64,000 nt of DNA from Escherichia phage vB_EcoM_PTE-Eco09 (PQ306574.1); one strand, 5' to 3'; shown: positions 24,109 to 31,025, counted from the stretch's first letter. The notes: generated from the sequence alone by a model not told the origin. Numbers and translations: made by a program.

Positions 24109-24575
24109 TTGATATCTATGCGGGTGGACCTTATCCATCGGGTGAATTGAGTAATTTCAATAAAAGACCATTCCGTCTATTTGGTTGCGATATTAACAGC
24201 ACAGAAGGATTTTTACAGGGGCTAAGATTTAAGAACCCTCAGAGACAAAGAGAAATCTTTTTGATGCACGGTGGCAAAGCAAAAAGAACCGGAAGAACTG
24301 AAAAGATTGAGAATCACCTGTTATATTTTCAGGGTCGCCAGATTCATCGAATGAGTGAGCATTATTACAGACTGGTACATCTGGCATTTGTTACGATGGC
24401 ACGGAATAACCCAGAATTTTGTAAAGCATTACTCGCTACCGGAAATAAGAAATTACGTCATAGTATAGGTGGAACTGATCCGTTAAAGACTATATTGACT
24501 GAATCGGAATTTTGTAGTATCCTCAATGATATTCGTGAACGTTTAACAAAACGAGGTGAAAATGTCAATTCTTAA
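24096..24575 (+). CDS. NADAR-domain protein (YbiA-like)
   Basis: GGPYPSGELSNFNKRPF...STEGFLQGLRF...MHGGKAKRTGR...CKALLATGNKKLRHSIGG resembles NADAR/YbiA signature blocks (SNF, SEHYFQAxKF, LLAT). Confidence 0.6.
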   Translation: MTSEIDIYAGGPYPSGELSNFNKRPFRLFGCDINSTEGFLQGLRFKNPQRQREIFLMHGGKAKRTGRTEKIENHLLYFQGRQIHRMSEHYYRLVHLAFVTMARNNPEFCKALLATGNKKLRHSIGGTDPLKTILTESEFCSILNDIRERLTKRGENVNS

Positions 24576-26058
24576 TATCATTAATCAGCTTGCAGCAACA
24601 GACAAAACATCGCTGAAAGAAAAGATTCTGAAAGAATCAGCAAGCAATGAAACGCTGAAAGAATGCTTTTATCTGGCATATTGCAAACAGGTTACGTTTG
24701 GCGTAAAGAAATACGATAAACCGTCTCGCTATTCGTCTGTATTGTCTTTATCCGGTGCATTACAGGTCTTTAAAAATAAACTTGCCACGCGTCAAGTAAC
24801 TGGTAATGCAGCATTACAACTAGTTACCGATACTCTGACTTGCTTGTCAGAGGATGATGCTAAAGTTGCAATGATGGTCCTGAATCGTGATCTGGAATGC
24901 GGCTGTTCCGCTACCACTGCAAACAAGGTATGGAAGAAACTGATCCCCCAGCAACCGTGCCACCTTGCATCGTCATGTTCTGATAAGACTATTGCTAATA
25001 TCAAGTATCCGGCGTATGCACAACTTAAAAGCGATGGCGCTCGTGGTATGGCTGATATTGACGGGGAAACATTAGCAATCTATACCCGCTCAGGTAATAC
25101 CTATCAAGGGCTTGATGATTTGTTTGCGGTTTTAGAGCGTCTACGAGGCCGTGGAATTGTTCTAGATGGCGAATTGGTATATATGCCTACCCTTTCGCAA
25201 ACACCAGCGCAGAACTTCGTTGAAAGCGTTTATGATGGTACTCTGTCATGGATATTTGAAGAAGAGGAAATGCCATTAACGCCAGTAGCGGAAGCAGTGA
25301 AAGAATCCGTTGTTGCAGATCGTCAGACCGGAAATGGTATCCTCAACAAATCACTTAAAGGAACTATTCCAAAAGAAGAAGCCCAATGTATTGTTTACAC
25401 TGTCTGGGATGTTATCGACCGTGATGTGTATTACGGAAACGAGAAAGCAACGAAGCAATATAAAGATCGATTCGAAGAACTAAAACAGATTGTTGAAGAA
25501 CTTAACGATCCTCGTGTTCAGATCATCGAAAACACTGTAGTTAACAATATCGATGAAGCTCGCGAAGTATATCATCGTTATGTCAACATGGGCTTAGAAG
25601 GTATTATCCTTAAAAATTTACATGGTGTATTTGAAGATCGCCGTAGTAAAGATCAGGTTAAATTTAAAGAAGTGATTGACTTCGACGCGGAAATTGTTGA
25701 TGTATATCCGCATAGTAAAGACCCCAATAAGGTAGGCGGTTTTACTGTCCGTAGTGCGTGCGGACGAATGATGACTAACACCGGATCGGGATTAACCGAC
25801 ACTACAACCGAAAAAGGTGATGATGGTATCGAACGTGTAATTCCGTTCGATCGTCGAAATGAACTCGACCGAGAAATGTTATGGGCTGACCGTCATAACC
25901 TGATTGGAAAAGTCATTGAGATGACATGCAACGGGTATATCCGCAGCAAATCACGTAAAGAAGATGAACCGGAGTTCTCTTTATTTCTCCCAATCATCAA
26001 ACGTATTCGCTACGACAAGACCACTGCAAATACAGTAAAAGAGGTATTCGATGTGTGA
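24562..26058 (+). CDS. 30: ATP-dependent DNA ligase
   Basis: Long matches to recalled T4 ligase (LTGNAA, RDLECG, ANKVW..LIP.QP..LASS, PAYAQLKADGAR, GIVLDGELVY, ASNGI.NKSLKGTI.KEEAQC, IENQVVNN.DEA, GLEGIILKN, RSK..FKEVID.D..IV..YPH.KDP.K.GGF, GSGL, LFLPI..R.R.DKT.ANT). Confidence 0.9.
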   Translation: MSILNIINQLAATDKTSLKEKILKESASNETLKECFYLAYCKQVTFGVKKYDKPSRYSSVLSLSGALQVFKNKLATRQVTGNAALQLVTDTLTCLSEDDAKVAMMVLNRDLECGCSATTANKVWKKLIPQQPCHLASSCSDKTIANIKYPAYAQLKSDGARGMADIDGETLAIYTRSGNTYQGLDDLFAVLERLRGRGIVLDGELVYMPTLSQTPAQNFVESVYDGTLSWIFEEEEMPLTPVAEAVKESVVADRQTGNGILNKSLKGTIPKEEAQCIVYTVWDVIDRDVYYGNEKATKQYKDRFEELKQIVEELNDPRVQIIENTVVNNIDEAREVYHRYVNMGLEGIILKNLHGVFEDRRSKDQVKFKEVIDFDAEIVDVYPHSKDPNKVGGFTVRSACGRMMTNTGSGLTDTTTEKGDDGIERVIPFDRRNELDREMLWADRHNLIGKVIEMTCNGYIRSKSRKEDEPEFSLFLPIIKRIRYDKTTANTVKEVFDV

Positions 26059-26527
26059 TAATGAAGGGGCGAAAGCCCCTAAACCTAAAAAATTGTCAAA
26101 GAAAGAGCAACGCCAGATCCTGAAAATGAAATATGGTGGACGTTGTGCCTATTGTGGCGAGGAACTAGGGGATCGCTGGCACGCGGACCACATCAAACCA
26201 GTATTGCGACGCTCAAAGGTAGTCTATGATGAAAATGGACGAATTGCCCGTAATGATGATGGATCATGGAAATATAAGGTTGTAGGAATGCATAAACCGG
26301 AGCATGATATACTTGATAACATGAATCCGGCGTGTGTGCAATGCAATCTTTATAAAAGCTGTATGGGCTTAGAATACTGGCGTAAGTGTATACGCGAGAA
26401 CTTCCAGAAGTACATTCAGCGCAATATGGGATTGCGAGCGGCTAAACGCTTTGGCTTGCTGTCAATCCACGACCAGCCAGTAGAATTTTATTTCGAAAAG
26501 TACGATCGCGAGCATCAAGAAAAATAA
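26051..26527 (+). CDS. HNH endonuclease
   Basis: Cys pairs and HNH core: CAYCG...WHADHIKP...N...CVQCN. Confidence 0.65.
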   Translation: MCDNEGAKAPKPKKLSKKEQRQILKMKYGGRCAYCGEELGDRWHADHIKPVLRRSKVVYDENGRIARNDDGSWKYKVVGMHKPEHDILDNMNPACVQCNLYKSCMGLEYWRKCIRENFQKYIQRNMGLRAAKRFGLLSIHDQPVEFYFEKYDREHQEK

Positions 26528-26539
26528 TTCAAAAAGTTG

Positions 26540-26568
26540 TTGACAGGGGATCGGTGATCCCCTATACT
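26540..26568 (+). promoter_or_regulatory. PeSL-type early promoter
   Basis: TTGACA, spacer GGGGATCGGTGATCCCC (perfect palindrome), TATACT, leader ACACACATCAAAACGAAACA, SD GGAGAATCAAAA. Confidence 0.6.
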
Positions 26569-26613
26569 ACACACATCAAAACGAAACACACTTTCTTAAA
26601 CGGAGAATCAAAA

Positions 26614-26925
26614 ATGAAATACATCGTAACGCTGCCAATGATTGACTTCGACGGAACCATGAACACCCAGAAGACCATGAGCGCGGAGAACCAACTGAAA
26701 AACGCTACCCTGATTCGTGAAGTTCGCAAGGCACTGGCAAAAGAATTTAACACCAAAATTCATTCTGTAACTGGCGAACGTTTCGCGGATCATCTTGATA
26801 TCAACATCAAACCAGTGCGCAACGGTGTTATCTCTGTAACAACCAGCCGCCCACATGCTGACGCTGATAATCTGACCGCTCGCGCAGAAGATGTAATTAT
26901 GACCGTTATCATGGAAAAACTTTAA
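26614..26925 (+). CDS. hypothetical protein
   Basis: 103-aa ORF after PeSL cassette. Confidence 0.45.
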   Translation: MKYIVTLPMIDFDGTMNTQKTMSAENQLKNATLIREVRKALAKEFNTKIHSVTGERFADHLDINIKPVRNGVISVTTSRPHADADNLTARAEDVIMTVIMEKL

Positions 26926-26933
26926 AAAAGTTG

Positions 26934-26962
26934 TTGACAGGGGATCACCGATCCCCTATACT
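26934..26962 (+). promoter_or_regulatory. PeSL-type early promoter
   Basis: TTGACA, spacer GGGGATCACCGATCCCC, TATACT. Confidence 0.6.
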
Positions 26963-26996
26963 ACACACATACCAACGAGATATAGGAGAATCAAAA

Positions 26997-27164
26997 ATGT
27001 TCCAGACTAAAGCAGAATGCGAAGCATACATTGTAGCAAACCACGGCGAAGATTATCTGAAATTTGACATTGTAGTAGCACAGAAGATCACCGGAATGGT
27101 TGCAAAATATCTGGGTGTTAAAGAAGGTTACTATCCGAGCAACGCACCGGAAATCAACAAATAA
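26997..27164 (+). CDS. hypothetical small protein (duplicated family, copy 1)
   Basis: MFQTKAECEAYIVANHGEDYLKFDIVVAQKITGMVAKYLGVKEGYYPSNAPEINK; near-identical copy at 30281. Confidence 0.5.
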   Translation: MFQTKAECEAYIVANHGEDYLKFDIVVAQKITGMVAKYLGVKEGYYPSNAPEINK

Positions 27165-27167
27165 TAG

Positions 27168-27196
27168 TTGACAATGATTAAAGGGAGTAGTAAGAT
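27168..27196 (+). promoter_or_regulatory. PeSL-type early promoter
   Basis: TTGACA 27168-27173, 17-bp spacer, TAAGAT, leader ACTCCCATCAAGACAACAAAC, SD GGAGAATCAAA. Confidence 0.5.
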
Positions 27197-27228
27197 ACTC
27201 CCATCAAGACAACAAACGGAGAATCAAA

Positions 27229-27408
27229 ATGAAAGCTATCGAAGTTCAGAAGTACATGGAAATCATCGTTGAAGGTAAAGCACATACAGTATTGACTACC
27301 CACGTAGGATATGATAAAAATGTGCATATGCTGGTAGACAATATCGGCTGGATGAAGTTTAATCCTAACGAGAACGTACAAGCTCAAGAAATGACCATCC
27401 CTTTCTAA
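27229..27408 (+). CDS. hypothetical small protein
   Basis: 59-aa ORF (MKAIEVQKYMEIIVEGKAHTVLTTHVGYDKNVHMLVDNIGWMKF...) after cassette. Confidence 0.4.
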   Translation: MKAIEVQKYMEIIVEGKAHTVLTTHVGYDKNVHMLVDNIGWMKFNPNENVQAQEMTIPF

Positions 27409-27420
27409 GAGGAATATATT

Positions 27421-27699
27421 ATGATGCGAATTACTGCAACGCTGGATAAGACACACAAAGAAAGATTTTTCGGTATGATCTTAAAAACGCCGATTTTCGA
27501 TAATTACCTTTATGTTGACTATGAAGGTCACATTAGCTATAAATGTAAAAATGATATTCGTGATTCCTTTGGTGATAAATCACAATCTGATATTCATGAC
27601 CACTGGTGGAACCATGACGAACCTTTACGAGTTATCGCAGTTGATGTAAAAACAACAAAAGAAGCTGATAAGGTAGTGAATGATTATGAGCAAATTTAA
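27421..27699 (+). CDS. hypothetical protein, HxxHW-motif family member 1
   Basis: 92 aa; shares YLYVDYEG...IxY, HDHWW and VIAVDV blocks with ORFs at 28123, 28446 and 29147. Confidence 0.45.
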   Translation: MMRITATLDKTHKERFFGMILKTPIFDNYLYVDYEGHISYKCKNDIRDSFGDKSQSDIHDHWWNHDEPLRVIAVDVKTTKEADKVVNDYEQI

Positions 27700-27943
27700 A
27701 GAATACAAAGCATATCAACAGATCCTGCGAGTATACGCACCAGAGTTCGCCGAAAAGATGATGGAAGATGCATCAAAATGCCCGTCCTTTTCTGGAAACA
27801 AAAACCATTATTCTACTCGTATTGTATCATGGAAAGAAACATGCTACACTCAACAGTGGATAAACGTTTTCTCAAAAACAATTGGTTGGAATGGTGTTAA
27901 TTATGGGTATTCAGAGTCAATTCAAAGATTATCGAGTGTATAA
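27680..27943 (+). CDS. hypothetical protein (FKxY...ADKMMxEASxCxSF family, copy 1)
   Basis: 87 aa; paralogous to following ORF. Confidence 0.4.
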   Translation: MIMSKFKEYKAYQQILRVYAPEFAEKMMEDASKCPSFSGNKNHYSTRIVSWKETCYTQQWINVFSKTIGWNGVNYGYSESIQRLSSV

Positions 27944-28121
27944 AGAAATCTGTGCTGTATTTGATGAGAAAACAGCAGATAAAATGATGAAAGAAGCGTC
28001 ACAATGTTCATCTTTTGTTGATAACAAAGATTTAAGAGTAAATGAGATCGTGTGCTGGAGCGACACGAAACATGAAATTGTATGGCGTACCGTGTACTAT
28101 AGCCGCGACCGAGGATTATAA
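27903..28121 (+). CDS. hypothetical protein (FKxY...ADKMMxEASxCxSF family, copy 2)
   Basis: 72 aa from ATG 27903; MGIQSQFKDYRVYKEICAVFDEKTADKMMKEASQCSSF parallels previous ORF. Confidence 0.4.
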   Translation: MGIQSQFKDYRVYKEICAVFDEKTADKMMKEASQCSSFVDNKDLRVNEIVCWSDTKHEIVWRTVYYSRDRGL

Positions 28122-28122
28122 A

Positions 28123-28431
28123 ATGAAATTAACTAAAAAGATTTTCCCAGAATTGCGTAACTGTCTGTTACTGGTTACTGAATATAAGCCGTATACGATC
28201 TACTTGTACGTTGATGAAAATCTGAAAATCCGTTACTATGATTATACGTCTCCAGTGATGCAATCATTTTCTCACTCGATAGCAAATAACTGTATGAATC
28301 ACAATCATTGGGTATCAAAAACGGATGACGATGCGTCAGAAGTTGTAGTGGTTGCATGGAATCTATCACCAGCGGAAGCAGATCAAGCACGCATTCAGCA
28401 TTACGCGAAAAACAACGGTCAAACTTTATAA
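28123..28431 (+). CDS. hypothetical protein, HxxHW-motif family member 2
   Basis: YTIYLYVDENLKIRYYDY...NHNHW...VVVVAWNL; SD GAGGA. Confidence 0.45.
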   Translation: MKLTKKIFPELRNCLLLVTEYKPYTIYLYVDENLKIRYYDYTSPVMQSFSHSIANNCMNHNHWVSKTDDDASEVVVVAWNLSPAEADQARIQHYAKNNGQTL

Positions 28432-28445
28432 GTGAGGAAAATATT

Positions 28446-28724
28446 ATGTTCAAAGTAGGTGATAAGTTTATTCTTAGTCGTGATATTCTCCCTAATCTGA
28501 AAGGTTGTATCATCAATCCTAGTAAAAATTCATGGTTTTATCTGTTTATCGACGACAAACTGAATGTACGCGCAGAATATAAAGAAGGTCTTCGTACTGG
28601 TCTAGGTTTCTTTCACGATCATGATCATAGCCATTGGCTAAACGGTGGATTCGAAGCAACGGTGCTAGCGGTTGATGTGACTTACACGAACATCATAGAA
28701 AAATATCAAAAAATTATTTTATAA
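28446..28724 (+). CDS. hypothetical protein, HxxHW-motif family member 3
   Basis: WFYLFIDDKLNVRAEY...HDHDHSHW...VLAVDVT; SD GTGAGGA. Confidence 0.45.
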   Translation: MFKVGDKFILSRDILPNLKGCIINPSKNSWFYLFIDDKLNVRAEYKEGLRTGLGFFHDHDHSHWLNGGFEATVLAVDVTYTNIIEKYQKIIL

Positions 28725-28730
28725 AAAGTA

Positions 28731-28759
28731 TTGACACCGGATCGGGGATATAGCATAAT
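28731..28759 (+). promoter_or_regulatory. PeSL-type early promoter
   Basis: TTGACA, spacer CCGGATCGGGGATATAG, CATAAT with GGGGATAT/ATATCCCC palindrome spanning -10. Confidence 0.55.
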
Positions 28760-28805
28760 ATCCCCATCGAAACGAGATACACTTTCTAACTAGGAGAATC
28801 AAATT

Positions 28806-29093
28806 ATGGCATACATTACTATCACTCTGAAAGTTAACAAATTCGCTCACGCTGCACACGAAACCGATAATGCAATCCGTAACAACAAGTTCGCACGTCT
28901 GGTACGCGATGCGGTAGCTAAAGAGTTCAACTTCAAATTTGCAGATGGTAAAGTTATCACTAAATGGACTCATGACGGCGAAACTAAAGTAGAACTTGCT
29001 GATAACTTCGCAAATCAGGAATATGCACACCGTCGCATTAATGAAATTATCAGCGATGAACTCTACTACGGTGTACAGGAAGGACTGTTTTAA
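28806..29093 (+). CDS. hypothetical protein
   Basis: 95-aa ORF after PeSL cassette; followed by terminator. Confidence 0.45.
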   Translation: MAYITITLKVNKFAHAAHETDNAIRNNKFARLVRDAVAKEFNFKFADGKVITKWTHDGETKVELADNFANQEYAHRRINEIISDELYYGVQEGLF

Positions 29094-29098
29094 TATAC

Positions 29099-29124
29099 GG
29101 GGCGTTAAGCCCCACCCCTTTTCA
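29099..29124 (+). terminator. intrinsic terminator
   Basis: GGGGC-GTTAA-GCCCC hairpin then CCCTTTTC. Confidence 0.55.
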
Positions 29125-29146
29125 TCCAACTATTGAGGATAATACT

Positions 29147-29455
29147 ATGAAAGATAATATCTTTGAATTTACCCGCGAAAATCTCCCAATGTTCCGAAAG
29201 TCTCTGCTTAAACTAGAGAACAGTAATTATGATGTATATTTTTACATCACCGAAGACCTAGAGATCCTTTACGCAGATTATCCAGGTCCGATCCGTACCT
29301 TCGAAGAAGCATCGCAGTATAAAAATGTTCACGGTCATGAGCACTGGTTACGAGAAAACCCAGGTCGCAAGAAAGCACGCGTTAAAGTGATTGCGATTGA
29401 CGTAACACCAGCATACGCCGACCGGATTGCACTGAATGATTATTTGTCTAAATGA
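29147..29455 (+). CDS. hypothetical protein, HxxHW-motif family member 4
   Basis: YDVYFYITEDLEILYADY...HGHEHW...VIAIDVT. Confidence 0.45.
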   Translation: MKDNIFEFTRENLPMFRKSLLKLENSNYDVYFYITEDLEILYADYPGPIRTFEEASQYKNVHGHEHWLRENPGRKKARVKVIAIDVTPAYADRIALNDYLSK

Positions 29456-29462
29456 TTTTATT

Positions 29463-29487
29463 AGCCGACCTTAGTGTCGGCTTTTTT
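29463..29487 (+). terminator. intrinsic terminator
   Basis: AGCCGAC-CTTAGT-GTCGGCT hairpin followed by TTTTTTA. Confidence 0.7.
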
Positions 29488-29512
29488 ATTGCATAAAATT
29501 TTAAAAAAGTTG

Positions 29513-29541
29513 TTGACACCAGATCACGCCTATAGCATAAT
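29513..29541 (+). promoter_or_regulatory. PeSL-type early promoter
   Basis: TTGACA 29513-29518, 17-bp spacer, CATAAT 29536-29541, conserved leader and SD. Confidence 0.55.
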
Positions 29542-29581
29542 ACACCCATCGAAACGAGATACCACTTAGGAGAATCAAACA

Positions 29582-29851
29582 ATGGCGCTGACTAAAACCA
29601 CTACCAACTTTGCAAAACGTCACGGCTTCGACCTTGAAATCAATAGCTTTAACGATTACACCCTTCTGTGTGTATATGAAATCGAAAATGATTGCGAGTG
29701 GATGTTCAGCTATCGCGTAAACGAAGACGGATCTTTCACTTGGAACGGAAATATCTATCTTGCACAGGAAGTAAAAGAAGAACTACCGGCGACTATCAAA
29801 GATGAGAAGCATTTACGTCAAGTTTTAAAATTTATTTCTGAAAATATCTAA
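29582..29851 (+). CDS. hypothetical protein
   Basis: 89-aa ORF after cassette. Confidence 0.45.
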   Translation: MALTKTTTNFAKRHGFDLEINSFNDYTLLCVYEIENDCEWMFSYRVNEDGSFTWNGNIYLAQEVKEELPATIKDEKHLRQVLKFISENI

Positions 29852-29859
29852 AAAAGTTG

Positions 29860-29888
29860 TTGACACCAAAGTAAGAACATAGCATAAT
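29860..29888 (+). promoter_or_regulatory. PeSL-type early promoter
   Basis: TTGACA 29860-29865, 17-bp spacer, CATAAT 29883-29888. Confidence 0.55.
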
Positions 29889-29921
29889 ACACACATACCG
29901 AAACGAACTGGAGAATCAAAA

Positions 29922-30203
29922 ATGAAATTCATCAAAGCAACCGAAATCCTGAAAAACAAAGAAGCATACATCGGAAACATCGTTGGTATGAACATTCGCG
30001 GCGCTGGTAGCCAGTGGACCAAACTGGTTGATGTTAAAGCTAAAGGCGATAAAATTGAGTTCACTGTAAAAATGCTTACTCATAACGCACATATGGGTAT
30101 CAAGACAAAAACGATGGCAGCAGATAAAAGCATCAACTATCAGGATCTGGGCGATTGGCTGAACTGGTGCAAAATACACAACATCGAAACTAATCACGAA
30201 TAA
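29922..30203 (+). CDS. hypothetical protein
   Basis: 93-aa ORF after cassette. Confidence 0.45.
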   Translation: MKFIKATEILKNKEAYIGNIVGMNIRGAGSQWTKLVDVKAKGDKIEFTVKMLTHNAHMGIKTKTMAADKSINYQDLGDWLNWCKIHNIETNHE

Positions 30204-30217
30204 TTTTAAAAAAGTTG

Positions 30218-30246
30218 TTGACGGGGATCGGGAGATCCCCTATAAT
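30218..30246 (+). promoter_or_regulatory. PeSL-type early promoter
   Basis: TTGACG, spacer GGGATCGGGAGATCCCC, TATAAT. Confidence 0.6.
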
Positions 30247-30280
30247 GCACACATACCAACGAGATATAGGAGAATCAAAA

Positions 30281-30448
30281 ATGTTCCAGACTAAAGCAGA
30301 ATGCGAAGCATATATCATTGAAACCCACGGCGAAGATTATCTGAAATTTGACATTGTAGTAGCACAGAAGATTGTAGGGATGGTTGCGAAATACCTCGGA
30401 GTTAAAGAAGGTTACTATCCTAGCAACGCACCAGAAATTAACAAATAA
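30281..30448 (+). CDS. hypothetical small protein (duplicated family, copy 2)
   Basis: MFQTKAECEAYIIETHGEDYLKFDIVVAQKIVGMVAKYLGVKEGYYPSNAPEINK; differs from 26997 copy at a few residues. Confidence 0.5.
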   Translation: MFQTKAECEAYIIETHGEDYLKFDIVVAQKIVGMVAKYLGVKEGYYPSNAPEINK

Positions 30449-30462
30449 TTTTATAAAAAGTG

Positions 30463-30491
30463 TTGACAGGGGAGGATAACTCCCCTACAAT
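30463..30491 (+). promoter_or_regulatory. PeSL-type early promoter
   Basis: TTGACA, spacer GGGGAGGATAACTCCCC, TACAAT. Confidence 0.55.
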
Positions 30492-30531
30492 ACAACCATC
30501 AAGACGAGATACCACTTAGGAGAATCAAACA

Positions 30532-30783
30532 ATGGCTAACATCGAAACCGCAAAGAAAATCGCTAAAGACCTGAACGTTAAAGGCTTCCGTAAACTGAAA
30601 TTACAGCGTGTACGCTACACCATCGGCAAACAGTGCTCTTTCATGAGCGAAGAAGTTGCTAACAGCCTGATTGATAACCTGATTGCGGCTGGCTGGGAAG
30701 TTGCGGATCTGAAAACTTGCCGCGAACTGGCTAAAAAAGGTCTTTTAGATTCTGTTACTATCAAACCAATGGGGGCAGCGTGA
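30532..30783 (+). CDS. hypothetical protein (first gene of coupled operon)
   Basis: 83-aa ORF after cassette. Confidence 0.45.
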   Translation: MANIETAKKIAKDLNVKGFRKLKLQRVRYTIGKQCSFMSEEVANSLIDNLIAAGWEVADLKTCRELAKKGLLDSVTIKPMGAA

Positions 30784-31025
30784 AAAGAAAATTAATTAAA
30801 CGCAATAAGGAATTTCTTAATAACTGCATTAAGGCCGCTAATGGTTGGCCTTTGTGCCTCTTCCTTTATGATTGGTATTCTAAACAATCAGTTGAGGAAG
30901 CACGACACTATAAGAAGATCAGAAAAGAATCACACACAAAACAAGGTCGCATTAACGGACTTTACTTAATGTGGCACGGTAAAGAACCGACTAAAATCTG
31001 TGCTGGGTTAAAGGGTCGTATATGA
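30780..31025 (+). CDS. hypothetical basic protein
   Basis: 81-aa ORF, GTG start overlapping upstream stop. Confidence 0.35.
   Translation: MKRKLIKRNKEFLNNCIKAANGWPLCLFLYDWYSKQSVEEARHYKKIRKESHTKQGRINGLYLMWHGKEPTKICAGLKGRI

Follow-up and report, generated by a model that had tools for sequence, protein, structure and literature searches.

An ancient tandem gene pair in the ligase-alt region of a Krischvirus phage and its relatives in podovirus early regions

Introduction

Two short reading frames that stand side by side and begin with much the same pattern raise a simple set of questions: are they genes, are they duplicates of each other, how long ago did the duplication take place, and what might the products do for the phage? 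We addressed these questions for such a pair in a 64-kb window (the whole stretch of DNA that was analysed). The window belongs to Krischvirus, the RB49-like T4-type phages of E. coli and Shigella, with a 4-kb query matching 58 phage records at 92–98% identity. The pair is situated in a block of small ORFs that lies downstream of the genes for DNA ligase gp30 and an HNH endonuclease and reaches up to a DNA methyltransferase gene and alt. Blocks of this kind in RB49 and Phi1 have been described as hyperplastic regions in which ORFans and PeSL cassettes abound (Arbiol et al. 2010, PMC2839356). A PeSL is a strong sigma-70-like early promoter joined to a transcription-terminating stem-loop, and both activities are reported in that study. 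Most novel ORFs of T4-like phages belong to the early class, and toxicity on cloning has been seen for some of them (PMC1524935).

Results

The two ORFs are paralogous, protein-coding genes

The pair consists of the following reading frames:

27680-27943, plus strand: ORF1 (copy 1), 87 aa; protein 100% identical to RB49p202
27903-28121, plus strand: ORF2 (copy 2), 72 aa from its ATG; 100% identical to RB49p201; RB49-type allele

The span 27680-28121, singled out in an earlier note as a local duplication of two adjacent ORFs with a common N-terminal pattern, runs exactly from the ORF1 start to the ORF2 stop. Pairwise comparison bears the claim out. BLASTP aligns ORF1 and ORF2 with 25/63 identities (40%), 63% positives and no gaps (E=1e-16), and the score of 53.9 bits, obtained with composition correction off, stands against 200 shuffles that averaged 5.1 bits and never exceeded 21.2. 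Because the alignment covers residues 2-64 of ~70, the similarity is not confined to the N-terminal pattern. Both proteins also match one and the same profile, phrog_8471 (71 positions, 'unknown function'), ORF1 with E=3.3e-36 over profile positions 1-71/71 and ORF2 with E=2e-33 over positions 2-69/71, in keeping with a local duplication that left adjacent same-strand paralogs. Within ORF1, the core (approximately residues 1-68) represents the family domain, while residues 67-87 form a frameshift-derived tail. A family HMM run against the six-frame translation of the 64-kb window found no further copies, the next match having E=0.4.

Start sites can be read in more than one way. The ORF1 start that is conserved genus-wide is the second ATG, at 27686 (MSKFK...); the ATG at 27680 is better spaced than 27686 from an AAGG Shine-Dalgarno sequence at 27670-27673. 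Ahead of ORF2, a Shine-Dalgarno-like GGTG occupies 27893-27896. Starting instead from the in-frame ATG at 27891 gives the 76-aa call used for phage kvi, and a mechanical ORF list extended the frame to a TTG at 27882.

A search for homologues in related phages was likewise positive: nearly all of 56 sequenced Krischvirus genomes contain the pair, with the matches confined to Krischvirus records, so that it is not particular to the window. It is already known, annotated in RB49 (RB49p202/RB49p201) and relatives and grouped in a single PHROG. Could the similarity nonetheless be due to chance, or the ORFs not be genes at all? Their small size leaves room for the suspicion, as does missing annotation in a few records (e.g., ORF1 is unannotated in Brandy). 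Against it stand the BLASTP result with its shuffle control, the strong purifying selection described below, and homologues in unrelated phage families detected by profile-profile alignment (hhalign), which together refute this reading and leave it a negligible probability. Both ORFs are genuine protein-coding genes and descend from the ancient tandem duplication of one gene, whose product is an apparently soluble protein of ~70 residues that is predicted to be all-helical.

The pair lies inside a putative early unit bounded by PeSLs

ORF1 and ORF2 are the third and fourth of six genes (27229-28724) that are located between two PeSLs. The remaining elements of the unit are as follows:

27168-27202, plus strand: PeSL-type early promoter; TTGACA at 27168-27173, 17-nt spacer, TAAGAT at 27191-27196; 10/12 matches in the promoter scan
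27229-27408, plus strand: first gene of the unit, 59 aa, RB49p204 homologue, phrog_15082, function unknown
27421-27699, plus strand: upstream neighbour B1, 92 aa, RB49p203, phrog_15972; its final 14-20 nt overlap the start of ORF1
28123-28431, plus strand: downstream neighbour B2, 102 aa, RB49p200, phrog_9345; starts 1 nt after the ORF2 stop
28446-28724, plus strand: B3, last gene of the unit, 92 aa, RB49p199, phrog_17255
28731-28767, plus strand: next PeSL; TTGACA, 17-nt spacer, CATAAT, stem GGGGATAT/ATATCCCC

In the 27168 PeSL, a stem-loop formed by GGGAGTA (27183-27189) and TACTCCC (27196-27202) covers the -10 element and is followed by a conserved leader and ribosome-binding site, GGAGAATCAAAATG. 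Sites homologous to the 27168 and 28731 PeSLs are annotated as promoters in GEC-3S. Judging from its sequence, the 28731 PeSL is probably a terminator or attenuator of this unit as well as the promoter of the next. The unit is tightly packed, its genes either overlapping or lying no more than 14 nt apart, and each internal gene has its own Shine-Dalgarno-like sequence. From this layout, host sigma-70 RNA polymerase would be expected to transcribe ORF1 and ORF2 early, starting at the 27168 PeSL, and their translation may be coupled.

The PeSL repeat family has 7-8 members in the window, with the pattern TTGACA-GGGGATC....GATCCCC-TATACT. Its repeats are 55-71 nt long and comprise TTGACA, a G-rich hairpin, TATACT or CATAAT, a conserved leader and the ribosome-binding site GGAGAATCAAA:

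26540, 26934, 28731, 29513, 29860, 30218, 30463 and 32595, plus strand: PeSLs found by repeat and promoter scan
27168, plus strand: variant PeSL

No PeSL lies directly upstream of ORF1 or ORF2, the nearest being those at 27168 and 28731; both genes are internal and have no intergenic space. A search of 26000-31000 gave no Rfam match at E<=1.

Other duplications are found in the same block. Four paralogs of a separate family, which we call B (27421-27699, 28123-28431, 28446-28724 and 29147-29455; phrog_9345/15972/17255), flank the pair with 27-35% identity and share the motifs Y.Y[VI]D, a histidine-rich H.HW, and V[IV]A[VW][DN][VL]; on sequence grounds the histidine motif might bind metal. Comparison of the ORF1/ORF2 family with these interleaved HxHW proteins detected no sequence similarity. 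A 216-nt direct repeat of 91% identity (26950-27165 and 30234-30449) contains part of a PeSL and a 56-aa gene (MFQTKAECEAY...) whose two copies, RB49p205 and RB49p191, are 93% identical in amino acid sequence, a duplication much younger than that of ORF1 and ORF2. A third pair of paralogs (26614-26925 and 28806-29093) is linked by phrog_7474, which both members match with E ~1e-43, and is not linked by BLASTP at 1e-2. Upstream of the block, the HNH endonuclease gene (26051-26527) overlaps the 3' end of the DNA ligase gene (24556-26058) by 8 nt, an arrangement conserved in RB49, and a divergent relative (L019) carries a 166-aa gene at the endonuclease position, with 78% DNA identity.

The duplication is old, and both copies are under purifying selection

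We extracted the pair from 13 other genomes or contigs and estimated selection by the Nei-Gojobori method. The dN/dS ratio is 0.10 for ORF1 of the window against Phi1, 0.13 between the two ORF2 alleles, 0.16 between the paralogs of Phi1, and 0.03-0.20 within alleles; with all comparisons between 0.03 and 0.20, purifying selection on both copies is strong. Of the two, ORF1 is better conserved, with 91% identity and a dN/dS of 0.03-0.10 across the genus.

Between the paralogs, DNA identity is 51% and third-codon identity 33%, and the synonymous difference is saturated (pS 0.74-0.86). A repeat search found no DNA repeat between the two copies, so that neither a shared repeat nor a low dS marks the event as recent. 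Saturated synonymous sites, low third-codon identity and the lack of a DNA repeat therefore point to an ancient duplication of a functional gene and not to a recent local event; judged by this divergence, the tandem duplication is old.

The overlap of ORF1 and ORF2 arose by a later frameshift

The 41-nt overlap between the two genes is explained by two features at the end of ORF1:

27881-27885, plus strand: 5-nt insertion ATTGG relative to Phi1, ECD7, JSE and G2248 (DNA alignment columns 246-250)
27886-27900, plus strand: relic of the ancestral ORF1 end, TTG GAA TGG TGT TAA (LEWC*), now out of frame

The insertion is carried by the window, RB49 and FL37. Frame 1 reads '...NNWLEWC*' in the window, whereas Phi1, ECD7, JSE and G2248 read '...SKTLEWC*' in frame. 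In eight genomes (Phi1, ECD7, GEC-3S, JK32, SFHK24, Whisky, Brandy and G2248), ORF1 is 69 aa long and ends in ...SKTLEW[C/S]*, and ORF2 starts two bases after the ORF1 stop (TAA-TT-ATG). The ancestral layout is that of two non-overlapping genes with a TAA-TT-ATG junction, kept in Phi1, ECD7, GEC-3S and G2248. By inserting five nucleotides near ORF1 codon 67, the RB49-type sequence bypasses the old stop, replaces LEWC with a 21-residue tail and runs 41 nt into ORF2. On the alignment, then, the overlap and the long ORF1 C-terminus represent a secondary frameshift of the RB49 sub-lineage and were not part of the original duplication.

The added residues look different from the rest of the protein. 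In the AF2 model the tail has a pLDDT of ~50 (residues 71-87) versus 83-95 for blocks of residues 1-70, and the 16-residue extension of the 87-aa ORF1 falls outside the phrog_8471 profile. By tblastn, all 87 residues are covered in 25/56 records at >=95% identity and only residues 1-70 in the other 31, the extended form being assigned in this count by identity band and coverage; a form present in that many records is therefore a stable lineage variant. A single T-to-C change in G2248 is silent in ORF2 (ATT to ATC) and would turn a Ser of the tail into Pro in the +5-nt frame, and the tail of the protein P0004 carries exactly that Pro. Anecdotally, the change fits constraint on the ORF2 frame only.

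We also considered a programmed frameshift that would fuse ORF1 to ORF2 and rejected it. Relative to ORF1, ORF2 lies in the +1 frame in the window and in the -1 frame in Phi1-type genomes, with start-to-start distances of 217 nt and 212 nt, respectively, so that no frame relationship is conserved; moreover, the ancestral form has a proper junction of stop, Shine-Dalgarno sequence and ATG. On a small scale, the locus illustrates cleanly how an indel of 5 nt can make neighbouring genes overlap while destroying neither.

ORF2 alleles recombine, and copy number varies within Krischvirus

ORF2 exists as two old, deeply diverged alleles with 64% amino-acid identity and a dS of ~1.9. The RB49-type allele reads MGIQSQFKDYRVY...SRDRGL, and the Phi1-type allele reads MSKFKDYRAYKAICDIF...GELEYEIN. 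Against Phi1-type phages, sliding identity of the window stays at 95-100% in the flanks and drops to 62-72% across 27820-28139. The sequence of G2248 changes from Phi1-type to RB49-type exactly at the junction of ORF1 with ORF2, and P0003, a protein from a metagenome, is chimeric inside ORF2. ORF2 alleles have evidently been exchanged by recombination, with breakpoints in ORF1, at the junction and in ORF2.

None of the pair's breakpoints lies at a PeSL: they fall at ~27820 (in ORF1), at the TAATTATG junction (G2248, JSE) and in ORF2 (P0003). Differences between the window and RB49 follow another pattern. The window is without ORF211, ORF209-206, ORF196.1/196/195 and ORF192, and all junctions are at PeSLs, as in the published modular-shuffling model:

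26511-26520: junction in the RB49 comparison, at a PeSL
26994/26927: junction in the RB49 comparison, at a PeSL
29560/29464: junction in the RB49 comparison, at a PeSL
30203/30199: junction in the RB49 comparison, at a PeSL

Allele exchange within genes complements this published model of PeSL-mediated shuffling.

In JSE (L003, 2501-3042) ORF1 is the only copy, and what follows it directly, across the same TAATTATG junction, is a homologue of the next gene that has diverged strongly (~40-60% DNA identity). From sequence, this arrangement resembles a module acquired from a lineage further away. In a metagenomic lineage represented by six contigs (L014 1501-1701, ERZ28614124; L015), ORF1 carries an additional A within a run of A (AAACAAAAAC to AAACAAAAAAT) that breaks its frame, and ORF2 is intact; ORF1 could be a real pseudogene here, or the extra A could be a homopolymer assembly error. 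Given JSE without ORF2 and the metagenomic disruption of ORF1, each copy appears to be dispensable in some background. A deeply diverged allele is also found for the gene upstream of the pair: the RB49p203 homologue (27420-27700) of Phi1 (L004) and GEC-3S (L008) has a DNA identity of 52-88% per 40-nt block (most blocks 52-72%), with flanks at 95-100%.

These variants invite the reading that the duplicates are redundant and one of them is decaying, the ORF1 frameshift being the first step of pseudogenisation and one functional copy sufficing. The 5-nt insertion in the window, the second and independent ORF1 frameshift in the metagenomic lineage, an ORF2 that is lost or was never present in JSE, and the single copy in every phage outside Krischvirus among the loci fetched (see below) all point in that direction. 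Yet the window frameshift costs the domain only its last 3-4 residues, the core still matching the profile with E=3e-36; ORF1 is more, not less, conserved than ORF2; the extended ORF1 is kept in 25 records; and the copies are just 38-45% identical, a distance that speaks for different roles and against redundancy. We therefore regard decay of a redundant copy as unlikely and treat both genes as functional.

The family extends to early genes of podoviruses

Word-seeded searches returned close relatives only. IMG/VR contributed two loci, both Krischvirus-like by sequence, one of which duplicates ECD7, and a scan of GTDB genomes by pattern and tblastn found no family member. A HMMER profile search of 1.84 billion representatives recovered nine proteins at E<=1e-3, five of them distant members (P0011-P0015, E 3.6e-11 to 9.9e-6). 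P0012 comes from an uncultured Krischvirus-like phage, strongly diverged and likewise equipped with PeSLs, where it occurs once, in the ligase-alt region. P0013 and P0015 lie in small-gene clusters of podovirus early regions, and both match PHROG 8471 with E ~1e-14. Using P0015 as a tblastn query, we found the gene in cultured Autographiviridae, namely Yersinia phages fHe-Yen3-01 and ISAO8, Klebsiella phages GP-4 and 6937, Enterobacter phage SDFMU_Pec and the Aeromonas Atoyac phages. In fHe-Yen3-01 it is gp5 (YP_009788906), at genome 3069-3344, and in four phages whose records start at the left end it lies within the first ~4 kb.

The relationship is supported by profile and by structure. Alignment of the Krischvirus set with the podovirus set by hhalign gives 99.1% probability and E=1e-18 over 60 columns, with the shared motif [FW]K[DE][YW]..[FY]..I....[YF]G....A..MM.DA.....F...IV.W.[DE]T.Y...W. 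A Foldseek search of BFVD with the ORF2 model retrieved uncharacterised proteins of ~90 aa from Aeromonas phiAS7, Yersinia fHe-Yen3-01 and Providencia PR1 at TM 0.64-0.73 and probability 0.87-0.98, with phiAS7 and fHe-Yen3-01 at TM 0.68-0.73.

The surroundings of the podovirus genes are themselves conserved across loci, as an early neighbourhood of uncharacterised small genes:

L017, 3212-3610 and 4913-5287: podovirus early neighbourhood
L022, 3093-3308 and 4109-4513: podovirus early neighbourhood
L023, 3413-3640 and 4443-4835: podovirus early neighbourhood

The order is family member, then DUF7267 or a pentapeptide-repeat protein, then an S-AdoMet lyase family gene (PF23780), which lies 1-2 kb downstream of P0013 and P0015 and does so in all three of these loci; in L022 a primase follows further downstream. 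The lyase-family gene of fHe-Yen3-01 is known solely by its PHROG-linked product name and is annotated 'SAM-dependent methyltransferase'. S-AdoMet lyase is known from T3 as an anti-restriction function.

Every fetched locus outside Krischvirus has a single copy; therefore, among the fetched loci, the tandem duplication is found in Krischvirus alone. This distribution bears on the possibility that ORF1 and ORF2 are obligate heterodimer partners made from translationally coupled genes. Adjacency, a 2-nt spacer or overlap, and an order conserved in the examined Krischvirus loci except JSE are what such partners would show. Obligate partnership is hard to reconcile, however, with single-copy genomes (JSE, the divergent relative L019 and all podoviruses), with the disruption of ORF1 in one lineage, and with ORF2 alleles that are swapped independently of ORF1, and we consider it quite unlikely.

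Predicted structure and possible function

AF2 models of ORF1 (pLDDT 82.4, pTM 0.72) and ORF2 (pLDDT 78.9, pTM 0.67), built on shallow alignments of 7-8 sequences, contain the same four helices with a one-residue offset (H10-16/H21-32/H45-48/H57-67 and H11-17/H22-33/H46-49/H58-69). Both proteins are hydrophilic (GRAVY ~-0.65), and no membrane-spanning or signal-peptide-like stretch was seen on reading by eye. The ORF1 core has a pI of 9.2, and ORF2 a pI of 6.55. Neither Pfam, NCBIfam, a PDB sequence search nor a PDB Foldseek search with both models gave a significant match. Homology to a characterised anti-defence protein or host-takeover inhibitor was not detected in Pfam, NCBIfam or PDB, and the BFVD matches are all uncharacterised. 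In the literature we found no mention of ORF201/202 or their paralogy and nothing for Krischvirus in combination with anti-defense; papers on fHe-Yen3-01 give no function for gp5.

Small helical proteins with a basic ORF1 core could be nucleic-acid-binding regulators, i.e., transcription or translation factors for phage early genes. The near-neutral pI of ORF2, the absence of HTH, zinc or other DNA-binding families among Pfam/NCBIfam results, and the lack of a structural neighbour in PDB speak against such a role, which we judge very unlikely.

Our best guess, though one that we think less likely than not to be right, is that ORF1 and ORF2 act by stoichiometric binding of a host or defence protein. 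Each protein would then be an accessory factor of takeover or counter-defence, the duplicate and its allelic variants would broaden or shift target specificity, and either copy would be dispensable in some backgrounds. Several observations lead us to propose this role: an early unit that is apparently sigma-70-driven, small products, the loss of one or the other copy in some genomes, divergence between the copies and exchange of alleles. Furthermore, the podovirus homologues lie among early genes near an S-AdoMet lyase gene, and novel ORFs of T4-like phages are generally early and in some cases toxic on cloning (PMC1524935). The binder or counter-defence idea draws only on size, early location and neighbourhood, and the proximity of the S-AdoMet lyase gene could simply reflect the clustering of all podovirus early genes. 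The structural and evolutionary statements on ORF1 and ORF2 are much firmer than this proposed role.

Discussion

The closest known counterparts of the pair are RB49 ORF202 (RB49p202, NP_891773) and ORF201 (RB49p201, NP_891772), which are 100% identical to it and have the same position, overlap and neighbours; the pair itself does not differ, and both RB49 proteins are annotated 'hypothetical protein'. Phi1 ORF202/ORF201 and ECD7 gp198/gp197 are orthologous tandem pairs in the same unit, but they are non-overlapping (69 aa + 71 aa, TAA-TT-ATG) and their ORF2 is the other, 64% identical allele. With PHROG 8471 as a whole, both ORFs agree end to end, ORF1 adding the 16-residue extension made by the frameshift. 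Early proteins of Autographiviridae (fHe-Yen3-01 gp5 and those of Pokrovskaiavirus, Koutsourovirus and phiAS7-like Aeromonas phages) share the motif and the early location, whereas they are encoded in single copy in another virus family, are ~90 aa long with a basic N-terminal extension, and have 16-38% identity.

With respect to genome organisation, the pair resembles the PeSL-bounded ORFan cassettes of RB49 and Phi1 in that it is part of a PeSL-bounded unit of the same hyperplastic region, and this region shows PeSL-bounded insertions and deletions relative to RB49, like the published cassettes (PMC2839356). Unlike those cassettes, neither ORF is directly flanked by PeSLs, and the pair's breakpoints lie in coding sequence or at a gene junction. 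A functional parallel may be drawn with T4 gp55.2, described in PMC4396842 as an inhibitor of E. coli topoisomerase I: like the pair, it is a small, non-essential, early ORFan with a mode of action, proposed or demonstrated, through contact with a host protein. The parallel is one of analogy only, with no sequence or structural relationship between gp55.2 and the ORF1/ORF2 family.

As a feature, the pair is ordinary, since duplication of small genes is expected in the hyperplastic regions of T4-like phages. What the present analysis contributes is an estimate of how old the duplication is, the explanation of the overlap by a frameshift, the sub-genic mosaic of alleles, and the link to early genes of Autographiviridae. 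The explanation that, as a whole, combines a host- or defence-binding role with early co-expression and ancient tandem duplication is one towards which we lean slightly. A bolder version strikes us as possible but doubtful: PHROG 8471 would be an early counter-defence or host-takeover module transferred horizontally between T4-like myoviruses (Krischvirus) and several Autographiviridae, in which it lies near the S-AdoMet lyase gene, and the duplication and the recombining ORF2 alleles would be traces of an arms race against host targets that vary.

Membership of the family extends beyond a single genus, and it links the variable ligase-alt region of Krischvirus to the left-end early region of T7-like podoviruses. 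In view of this link, the family is a reasonable candidate for screens for host-takeover and anti-defence genes.
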